Shown piece by piece: positions 10,351-11,131 of a stretch of DNA of 44,680 bases. The notes beneath the pieces are model-generated. The model saw nothing but the letters and a program-made list of their open reading frames with translations. It was not told the origin of the DNA and made no database searches. The translations under genes were made by a program, and so were the position numbers. The DNA lies in IMG/VR virus record IMGVR_UViG_2721755657_000002. One strand, written 5' to 3'. Position 1 is the stretch's first letter. Every line of letters starts with the position of its first letter. This stretch comes from a virus. Taxonomy: Duplodnaviria > Heunggongvirae > Uroviricota > Caudoviricetes.

Positions 10351-10684
10351 AACCTGCTTCTAATGTGGTTACGGTACGATCATGTGGGCAATTTCCATTG
10401 CTGAAAACTCCGGGATCAACCATGATGTATGAGCTGTAGTATGAAGTCTCTTGCTATCCGGTTAAGTAAATGTCTGCTTCTCACTCAAAGCGGACTAGAA
10501 GGTTAGCTTGCGTCGGACTTGGCGTATTTAAAGAAGTGCTGGTGGTAACTGGTTGTTGTGTTCCATTTCTACAAAACAAAATCACAGAAACTATACCCAA
10601 TAGTTATATTGAATCAATGATGAGACAGCCTCATATTTATCAGAACTGGTGTACGTCCAATACAGGAGGTTGTCGTGCTGGTTC

Positions 10685-10774
10685 TCAAATGTGCGCTAGC
10701 TATTGCGGCTGTAATGGCAATTTATTGTCTTGCTGTTGTTCTTACGGATCGCCTTTCTGATTGATTTTATATTG
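10685..10774 (+). CDS. Candidate 29-aa hydrophobic peptide (Hok-like N-terminal TM; possible type I toxin or hok remnant)
   Basis: AGGAGG 5 nt upstream of GTG; product MLVLKCALAIAAVMAIYCLAVVLTDRLSD. Confidence 0.3.
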
Positions 10775-10975
10775 GCGAGGTGACGGGAGTTAAGTAGAAT
10801 TGCTGCGGGTGCTTGAGGCTATCTGCCTCAGGCATGAACACCAACGGCAGATAGAGAAAAGCCCCAGTTAACATTACGCGTCCTGCAAGACGCTTAACAT
10901 TAATCTGAGGCCAATTTCATGCTAGACATATGTAGGTTAGCCTCTTACGTGCCGAAAGGCAAGGAGAAGCAGGCT

Positions 10976-11131
10976 ATGAAGCAGCAAAAGGCGATGTTAA
11001 TCGCCCTGATCGTCATCTGTTTAACCGTCATAGTGACGGCACTGGTAACGAGGAAAGACCTCTGCGAGGTACGAATCCGAACCGGCCAGACGGAGGTCGC
11101 TGTCTTCACAGCTTACGAACCTGAGGAGTAA
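10976..11131 (+). CDS. hokD: Hok-family membrane toxin HokD (RelF)
   Basis: MKQQKAMLIALIVICLTVIVTALVTRKDLCEVRIRTGQTEVAVFTAYEPEE; AAGGAG about 10 nt upstream. Confidence 0.85.
   Translation: MKQQKAMLIALIVICLTVIVTALVTRKDLCEVRIRTGQTEVAVFTAYEPEE

Follow-up and report, generated by a model that had tools for sequence, protein, structure and literature searches.

In Escherichia coli K-12, hokD (relF) stands third in the relB-relE-hokD array of the Qin prophage. In the viral DNA analysed here, a stretch of 44.7 kb that we call the window, hokD occurs without relBE, and a short open reading frame for a hydrophobic peptide of 29 residues (hereafter orf29) lies some 300 bp upstream of it. This arrangement raises two questions: how the toxin gene is controlled, and what the small frame upstream of it represents. 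The initial annotation had reasoned that hokD must be regulated differently here, no Sok RNA being known for it, and that the small frame might be a second type I toxin or a decayed hok paralogue. Our analysis leads us to consider it likely that the region is made up of two linked, separable elements, namely a complete hok/mok/sok locus and a genuine coding mini-gene, orf29 with its signals (~10609-10764).

Genomic setting of hokD

The window is a Qin-like lambdoid prophage of E. coli, and both orf29 and the hok locus lie in its nin-region. The 1.17-kb stretch surrounding orf29 and hokD is 100% identical to several RefSeq chromosomes. On the left side the annotated gene order is dicB, dicA, dicC, a ydaT-like gene, a replication gene, a DUF977 gene and an FRG-domain gene, and rightward it continues with hokD, rem, a 92-aa ORF, ydfU (DUF968) and the antiterminator Q gene. 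The nin-region synteny hokD-rem-ydfU-Q is common to the window and the Qin prophage of K-12, whereas the DNA to the left of hokD differs between the two.

The product of hokD is 100% identical to K-12 HokD (tblastn) and matches the Pfam HOK_GEF family (PF01848) with 81.6 bits against a cut-off of 22, identifying the gene as the coding sequence of a Hok/Gef-family toxin. The K-12-type relBE-hokD arrangement is absent, with neither relB nor relE directly upstream of hokD. The observation that hokD is present without relBE held up on re-inspection of the whole window, in which tblastn with the K-12 proteins as queries found no credible RelB or RelE. A weak RelB-like match (E 0.007, ~39.1-39.5 kb) is an artefact that falls inside a low-complexity, Ala/Ser-rich tail-fibre gene (37700-40798). 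The coordinates of the features discussed below are collected in Table 1.

Table 1. Annotated and predicted features of the orf29-hokD region (positions in the window)
Feature	Position	Strand	Remarks
FRG-domain gene	8840-10174	minus	annotated left neighbour of the hokD region
Candidate sigma-70 promoter of orf29, TTGAAT-17 nt-CATATT	10609-10637	+	predicted transcription start (TSS) ~10644
Shine-Dalgarno sequence AGGAGG	10664-10669	+	5 nt before GTG 10675
orf29, 29 codons, predicted single-pass membrane peptide MLVLKCALAIAAVMAIYCLAVVLTDRLSD	10675-10764	+	GTG start
hok promoter, TTGGCG-17 nt-TAGAAT	10772-10800	+	promoter scan; starts 8 nt past the orf29 stop codon
Predicted full-length hok mRNA, leader to terminator	10805-11222	+	Rfam leader match and fold
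Inverted repeat, 9 bp, CTATCTGCC...GGCAGATAG	10819-10827 / 10846-10854	+	hok mRNA leader stem, tac/ucb region
Predicted Sok antisense RNA, ~75 nt	10853-10927	minus	predicted ends; fold
mok-like frame, 70 codons	10919-11131	+	in frame with hokD; GAGG 9 nt upstream of its ATG
Predicted Sok promoter, -35 TTGCCT, 17 nt, -10 TAACCT	10962-10957 (-35), 10939-10934 (-10)	minus	hexamers located
hokD toxin CDS, 51 aa	10976-11131	+	annotated hokD in RefSeq genomes
fbi-like element CCTCAACGCACCCGC	11181-11195	+	complementary to the mRNA 5' end GCGGGTGCTTGAGG (10805-10818)
Intrinsic terminator of hok mRNA	11200-11217	+	first convincing terminator 3' of orf29

hokD belongs to a complete hok/mok/sok locus

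Judged by sequence and predicted folds, hokD is no orphan but part of a type I toxin-antitoxin locus, hok/mok/sok of the hokW/sokW type, which is present in full at ~10772-11222. The clearest evidence comes from the Rfam sok model (RF01794), which matches 10807-10981 on the plus, hok-sense strand with 114.3 bits (gathering score 59). The match covers the model in full (positions 1-157 of 157), and its last bases align with the hokD ATG; hence the model describes the leader of the hok mRNA, with Sok encoded within it on the opposite strand. With this whole apparatus present in the window, the claim that hokD must be regulated differently is unsupported. The hok promoter remains promoter-like in 50 of the 54 unique variants. 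In the minimum-energy fold of a 420-nt transcript (10806-11225) the 5' end pairs with the 3' end, and this pairing joins the extreme 5' segment to the fbi-like element, as in the fbi (tac/fbi) fold-back. Apart from the terminator of the hok mRNA, the only other terminator match is a weak 3-GC hairpin within orf29.

The inverted repeat that had been noticed between the two reading frames is real and forms part of a longer, imperfect repeat of 20 nt. It is no separate intergenic feature, however, as it aligns to the first long helix of RF01794 and constitutes the conserved leader stem of the hok mRNA. A tac/ucb stem of this kind has been described for the hok leader of plasmid R1 (element names follow PMC9841398). 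The mok-like frame that overlaps hokD is annotated as 'MokW-like' or 'MokW protein' in phages HannyBb and mEp460. On the opposite strand, the predicted Sok promoter stands where the sok promoter of R1 would presumably lead one to expect it. In the RNA predicted to arise from it, an unpaired 5' tail with complementarity to the mok start region precedes a long hairpin and a U-rich tail; the fold of this RNA, at -30.3 kcal/mol (z = -5.27), was equalled by none of 200 shuffles. The 3' UTR of hok also gave a weak match to isrK, which we discounted because it scored 25.7 bits where the cut-off is 50.

Across 72 unique alleles of the hok locus nearly all columns are conserved, except for those of 10911-10932. 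This short stretch, where mok begins and the 5' tail of Sok is predicted to pair, occurs in at least 12 alleles, while the adjoining predicted Sok promoter region (10933-10975) is nearly invariant. The predicted Sok 5' tail covers 10911-10927 and thus coincides with the hypervariable stretch of the locus. Such a pattern is what would be expected if the specificity of Sok for its target diversifies, which is plausible, since a single genome can contain as many as 10 matches to the region.

Relationship to known hok loci

[quoted passage not shown] In mokC the mok frame is in frame with hok, as it is in the window, while in R1 it occupies a different frame. Unlike the window, neither R1 hok/sok nor hokC/mokC has been reported to carry an upstream 29-codon ORF.

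A closer counterpart is hokW-sokW of prophage 5 (Sp5) of E. coli O157:H7 Sakai, for which the experiments of Takada et al. (2021, PMC8621323) demonstrated the toxicity of Hok, its repression by Sok with the involvement of RNase III and Hfq, and a role of the locus in speeding lysis and phage release after induction. The two are near-identical hok/sok loci of lambdoid prophages, each with a Hok of 51 aa, and primers YO-349 and YO-351, used to delete hokW-sokW in Sp5 (PMC8621323), match 10805-10854 of the window with one mismatch. The Sok-target allele of the window may differ from that of Sp5, given the hypervariability of this stretch. Another O157 strain, Z892, retains a total of 59 nt, made up of only the last ~23 nt of orf29 and the hok-promoter stretch, and no hok is annotated beside this remnant. 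[quoted passage not shown] The hok part of the region is therefore a locus of an already known kind, covered by the work on hokW-sokW and on prophage hok genes.

The Qin locus of K-12 has the same HokD protein, 3' UTR and terminator as the window, as well as the same downstream rem and ydfU. In the alignment, identity begins just 16 nt before the hokD ATG. With relBE in their place, the hok promoter and leader are missing from K-12, as are orf29, the mok start and the stretch that encodes Sok. The predicted Sok promoter has likewise lost its upstream portion there, -10 hexamer included. From this alignment, relBE-hokD of K-12 is derived and 5'-truncated, its sequence upstream of position -16 of hokD having been replaced in its entirety. 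This corrects a K-12-centred view of hokD: relBE-hokD appears as a truncated relic, and the natural prophage form as an ordinary Sok-controlled locus.

orf29 is most likely a mini-gene under purifying selection

The existence of an upstream hydrophobic frame with a strong Shine-Dalgarno sequence, as initially annotated, was borne out: AGGAGG-N5-GTG opens a 29-codon ORF whose start lies 301 nt upstream of the hokD ATG. Residues 6-23 of the 29-aa peptide are, as read from the sequence, uninterruptedly hydrophobic. We predict a single membrane helix of ~18 residues, preceded by a short Lys-containing N-terminus and followed by a short charged tail with the pattern (T/M)(D/E)(R/H)(L/F)(S/T)D. The signals ahead of the frame are also retained. 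CAGGAG is kept in all orf29 variants found by BLAST, and the copy on the Shigella virulence plasmid pINV has an ATG at the same start position. The candidate promoter has only 8/12 consensus matches, but is promoter-like in 44 of the 54 unique variants, and diverged copies recovered with BLAST (MS14384, MIN14 and pINV) retain its two hexamers with 17 nt between them.

From the fetched loci we collected 133 copies of orf29, closely related to one another, of which 132 are complete. The set of 119 viral contigs was obtained by means of a search pattern in which the -10 region and the Shine-Dalgarno sequence are fixed, and conservation of these two elements among them is thus no independent evidence. 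The frame is intact in all 132 complete copies, with a length of 29-35 codons and 22 peptide variants; none has a frameshift or stop, and indels occur just outside the ORF. Pairwise pN/pS is 0.30 in the orf29 frame versus 0.69 and 1.35 in the other two frames, for 26 unique sequences that represent few independent events or lineages. Variable sites number 14, 6 and 17 at codon positions 1, 2 and 3, respectively. The copy in the window differs from that of pINV by 10 synonymous and 8 non-synonymous changes (dS 0.46, dN 0.13), and from that of MS14384 by 8 and 5. Replacements are almost all of one hydrophobic residue for another (Ala, Val, Ile, Leu, Met or Phe), with the IYCL core and the acidic-basic tail persisting, and even the most diverged copies (pINV, MS14384 and L073) keep the frame, the Shine-Dalgarno sequence and the start, with conservative amino-acid changes. 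As it is intact in every complete copy and its substitutions are biased toward synonymous ones, orf29 is more than a chance frame, and most likely a real protein-coding mini-gene under purifying selection.

A 96-codon ORF (10470-10760) that overlaps orf29 in another frame was rejected as a candidate gene: it has no family match, its upstream half is not conserved elsewhere, and the pN/pS values of the two alternative frames over the orf29 stretch are the higher ones given above.

Gene callers have predicted the peptide more than once: strain D6 has it as a 'hypothetical protein' (WP_000960667.1), and other entries, from GenBank among them, call it a 'membrane protein' or 'conserved hypothetical protein [E. 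coli B REL606]'; PGAP omits it in most genomes. Strains with the module include LF82 and, among E. coli B, REL606 and BL21(DE3), and the peptide is contained in GenBank proteins ACT39199 and ACT43394, the latter from BL21(DE3). It has no family match in Pfam, NCBIfam, PHROGs or PADLOC. YnfS, a small protein of the K-12 Qin prophage that is likewise 29 aa long, was considered as its identity and is unrelated. Literature searches with peptide strings, accession numbers and hokD combined with small-protein terms found nothing on orf29, and a 2026 survey of hok makes no mention of neighbours or upstream ORFs, orf29 included. We conclude that orf29 is probably a genuine, uncharacterised small gene.

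Distribution of orf29 and its linkage to hok

Of 5426 complete E. coli genomes, 2648 have a match to the 241-nt module at 10560-10800 and 1720 contain at least 80% of it; most copies are >90% identical. A selected mini-gene that PGAP mostly leaves unannotated is thus part of a module present in about a third of the complete genomes of this species. Beyond E. coli, when one genome per species was scanned, matches to the module were confined to Shigella, E. albertii and three metagenome bins with the look of contamination.

As a rule orf29 accompanies hokD. It occurs directly upstream of hokD-type loci behind four different, unrelated left neighbours: the FRG gene (in the window, LF82 and XDL), a DUF4145 gene (strain D6), DUF262 together with an AAA ATPase (a record labelled DH5alpha) and QueH (MIN14). 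In diverged contexts homology on the left side starts at ~10600, and the DNA upstream varies with the neighbouring cargo gene. Hence, the unit is small, consisting of a promoter-like site, the Shine-Dalgarno sequence and the ORF. The linkage to hok can be broken from either side. orf29 is found without hok in MS14384 and beside a truncated hok remnant in pINV, while hokD accompanies a 5'-truncated orf29 in WY517-2 and no part of orf29 in K-12, so that hok does not require orf29.

The pINV copy (76% identity, ATG start) lies 291 nt upstream of icsP and adjoins a truncated remnant of the hok promoter and leader; copies of this type are present in 124 Shigella plasmid records and 19 Escherichia records. 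A homologue of orf29 is thereby placed in the much-studied upstream region of icsP, which is known to be silenced by H-NS. In the table of transcription start sites of pWR100 from Shigella M90T (PMC7132871, supplementary table 3), icsP starts are listed at 90709 and 90726, and no start is listed at the site predicted for the orf29 homologue (~91028) or at the position predicted for the hok remnant.

Alternative readings of orf29

The architecture of orf29 calls to mind the small proteins of the TisB, ZorO, ShoB, Ldr, Ibs and YohP type, which resemble it in size and in having one helix with short charged ends, though it has no sequence similarity to any curated family and, unlike the type I toxins among them, no conserved partner RNA. 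We consider it unlikely that orf29 is the toxin of a second type I pair, with a cis-antisense RNA arising from a minus-strand site past its stop codon. Such a role would fit a small, strongly hydrophobic, single-helix peptide with a strong Shine-Dalgarno sequence, as seen in many type I toxins, and the sequence TTAACT-18-TAAAAT (10793 to 10764; 9/12) is indeed present on the minus strand, antisense to the 3' end of orf29. However, only 27 of the 54 variants have a promoter-like sequence at this site, and pINV, MS14384 and the L073 type have lost it while retaining an intact ORF. The search for an antisense promoter and small RNA over either frame, which the initial annotation had suggested, turned up the predicted Sok and its promoter for hok and an inconsistently conserved site for orf29. 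In the consensus fold the Shine-Dalgarno sequence can pair with codons 27-29 (CAGGAGG with CCUUUCUG), reminiscent of its sequestration in toxin mRNAs, but the helix is without covariation and the fold is no better than that of shuffles (z = -1.35). The peptide also matches no toxin family. Moreover, nothing is conserved upstream of ~10600, where the sequence varies by cargo gene, and therefore no conserved divergent small RNA is possible either.

It is distinctly improbable, in our estimate, that orf29 is untranslated, with the stretch conserved as nucleic acid (for instance as a promoter upstream of hok that extends its transcripts at the 5' end) or simply as recently shared prophage DNA that happens to contain an open frame. 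Copies that are mostly >90% identical may still have such a frame because they are recent, the sequence abuts the hok promoter, and both the absence from most PGAP annotations and the lack of a start at the pINV copy in the M90T table are consistent with this reading. Against it, the synonymous bias is confined to the orf29 frame, the 132 copies are free of frameshifts and stops despite indels immediately outside, and the diverged pINV, MS14384 and L073 versions preserve frame, Shine-Dalgarno sequence and start while changing residues conservatively. The notion of a decayed hok paralogue, the remnant of a tandem second hok locus, deserves hardly any credence. It derives from the position of orf29 beside hok and from a vague similarity in composition, in that a membrane helix precedes T-D-R in orf29 and T-R-K in Hok. 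For the proposed resemblance to the N-terminal half of Hok we obtained no measurable signal: BLASTP gives no alignment of orf29 with HokD even at E<=1000, and HOK_GEF no match at E<=1. Nor does the hok-leader model have a second match anywhere in 10200-11400; the 5' UTR of orf29, counted from the predicted start, would be ~30 nt, against ~170 nt in hok; and the frame is under purifying selection rather than decaying.

A model for the two elements

The observed anatomy, conservation and reading-frame selection are compatible with a working model of two separable elements, whose start sites, read-through, membrane insertion and effect on Hok are our predictions. The hok mRNA would start near 10805 and be kept untranslated by the pairing of its 5' end with fbi near the 3' end. 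Translation of Hok would be coupled to the upstream, in-frame mok, and the ~75-nt Sok, transcribed from the minus-strand promoter inside the mok-hok junction, would bring about repression by pairing with the mok start region. orf29, for its part, would be a small single-pass peptide of the inner membrane encoded by a moron-like accessory gene of the prophage with its own weak promoter. Since it points the same way as the replication and Q genes, it may also be transcribed during lytic growth by rightward early transcription. With no terminator between orf29 and the hok promoter, which begins 8 nt past the stop codon, we infer that the orf29 transcript reads through the hok locus to 11217, head-on against the transcription of Sok. 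The orf29 promoter might also modulate the balance of Hok and Sok.

A stronger version of the functional link, which we regard as rather unlikely, would make orf29 an unrecognised membrane-active partner of prophage hok/sok loci, either as a second toxin or as a peptide and promoter whose read-through into hok and against Sok would set the Hok/Sok balance and thereby the timing of lysis on induction. If so, a two-peptide module, of which only hok/sok has been described so far, would be present in roughly one E. coli genome in three. If expressed at all, orf29 would add a small membrane protein to the repertoire of lambdoid prophages, and it would bear on hok/sok cloning and deletion experiments that were made without the upstream neighbour.

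Genomic setting of the orf29-hok module

The gene that adjoins the orf29-hok module on its left codes for an FRG-domain protein; this protein hits phrog_4962 and, among the candidate defence systems of PADLOC, PDC-S15 (E 7e-99). The same slot in other genomes is occupied by a DUF4145 gene, a DUF262 gene with an AAA ATPase, QueH, or a methyltransferase with an NgoMIV-type restriction enzyme. This turnover of occupants, including the PDC-S15-like FRG gene seen here, makes the slot look like a variable hotspot for cargo or defence genes. The intergenic region between the FRG gene and orf29 holds a near-palindrome and a pair of direct repeats, which together may act as an operator of the divergently oriented FRG gene. 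The leftward promoter-like site, which faces away from the orf29 promoter, recurs in 41 of the 54 unique variants scored.

Features flanking the orf29-hok module, and its plasmid counterpart (window coordinates unless a plasmid is named)
Feature	Position	Strand	Remarks
FRG-domain protein, 444 aa	8840-10174	-	adjoins module
Direct repeats (two), TCA(T/A)AATTCACAAA	10273 and 10334 (stretch 10273-10347)		FRG-orf29 intergenic region
Near-palindrome, 18 bp, ATTCACAAATTTGCGAAT	10278-10295		FRG-orf29 intergenic region
Promoter-like site, TTGATT-16-TATAGT	10590-10617	-	leftward, back to back with orf29 promoter
rem, 83 aa	11348-11599		downstream of hok; phrog_340, conserved phage gene
92-aa ORF	11666-11944		downstream of hok; phrog_1212, conserved phage gene
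orf29 homologue and hok remnant	Shigella flexneri pCP301 (locus L009) 2935-3190; pWR100 about 90800-91060		icsP upstream region

Variation and dispersal of the module

Within the hok locus, which is otherwise nearly invariant, the sole hypervariable part is the stretch carrying the mok start and the Sok target (10911-10932), for which the 72 unique sequences show at least 12 alleles; that of strain D6 has ATA in place of the mok ATG carried by the others. A diverged orf29 allele occurs in three IMG/VR contigs (L073, L083 and L133), where a 13-nt deletion takes out the usual stop codon and the frame, now of 35 codons, extends into the hok -35 region (MLALTCVLAIVAVLVIYCLVVAFMERFSDWRGRGS). The hok leader downstream of it is almost unchanged, so the two parts differ in their histories.

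On the Shigella virulence plasmid, the region upstream of icsP contains an intact orf29 homologue (MLVLKGTLAIAAVMTIYCLIVVLMERFSD) with a truncated hok promoter and leader alongside. Lying 291 nt from icsP, it resembles a fossil prophage fragment, and the M90T data list no transcription start site in the corresponding region of pWR100. Short contigs from metagenome bins named Collinsella, Ca. Scatousia and Haemophilus (L012, L013 and L015) carry the Escherichia prophage module, most likely through binning contamination rather than as true hosts.

The hok 3' UTR and the HokD Tyr47 codon

The hok 3' UTR and terminator (11140-11221) match the Rfam model of the Salmonella prophage sRNA isrK at 25.7 bits, below the cut-off of 50, probably reflecting a likeness of hairpin-plus-terminator shapes. 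According to a recent preprint, A-to-I editing by TadA of the hokC, hokD and hokE mRNAs recodes a tyrosine, Tyr47 in HokD, to a cysteine that would pair with Cys30. The Tyr47 codon here is TAC (11114-11116), and it lies inside the motif CUUACGAA, which is found at this locus.
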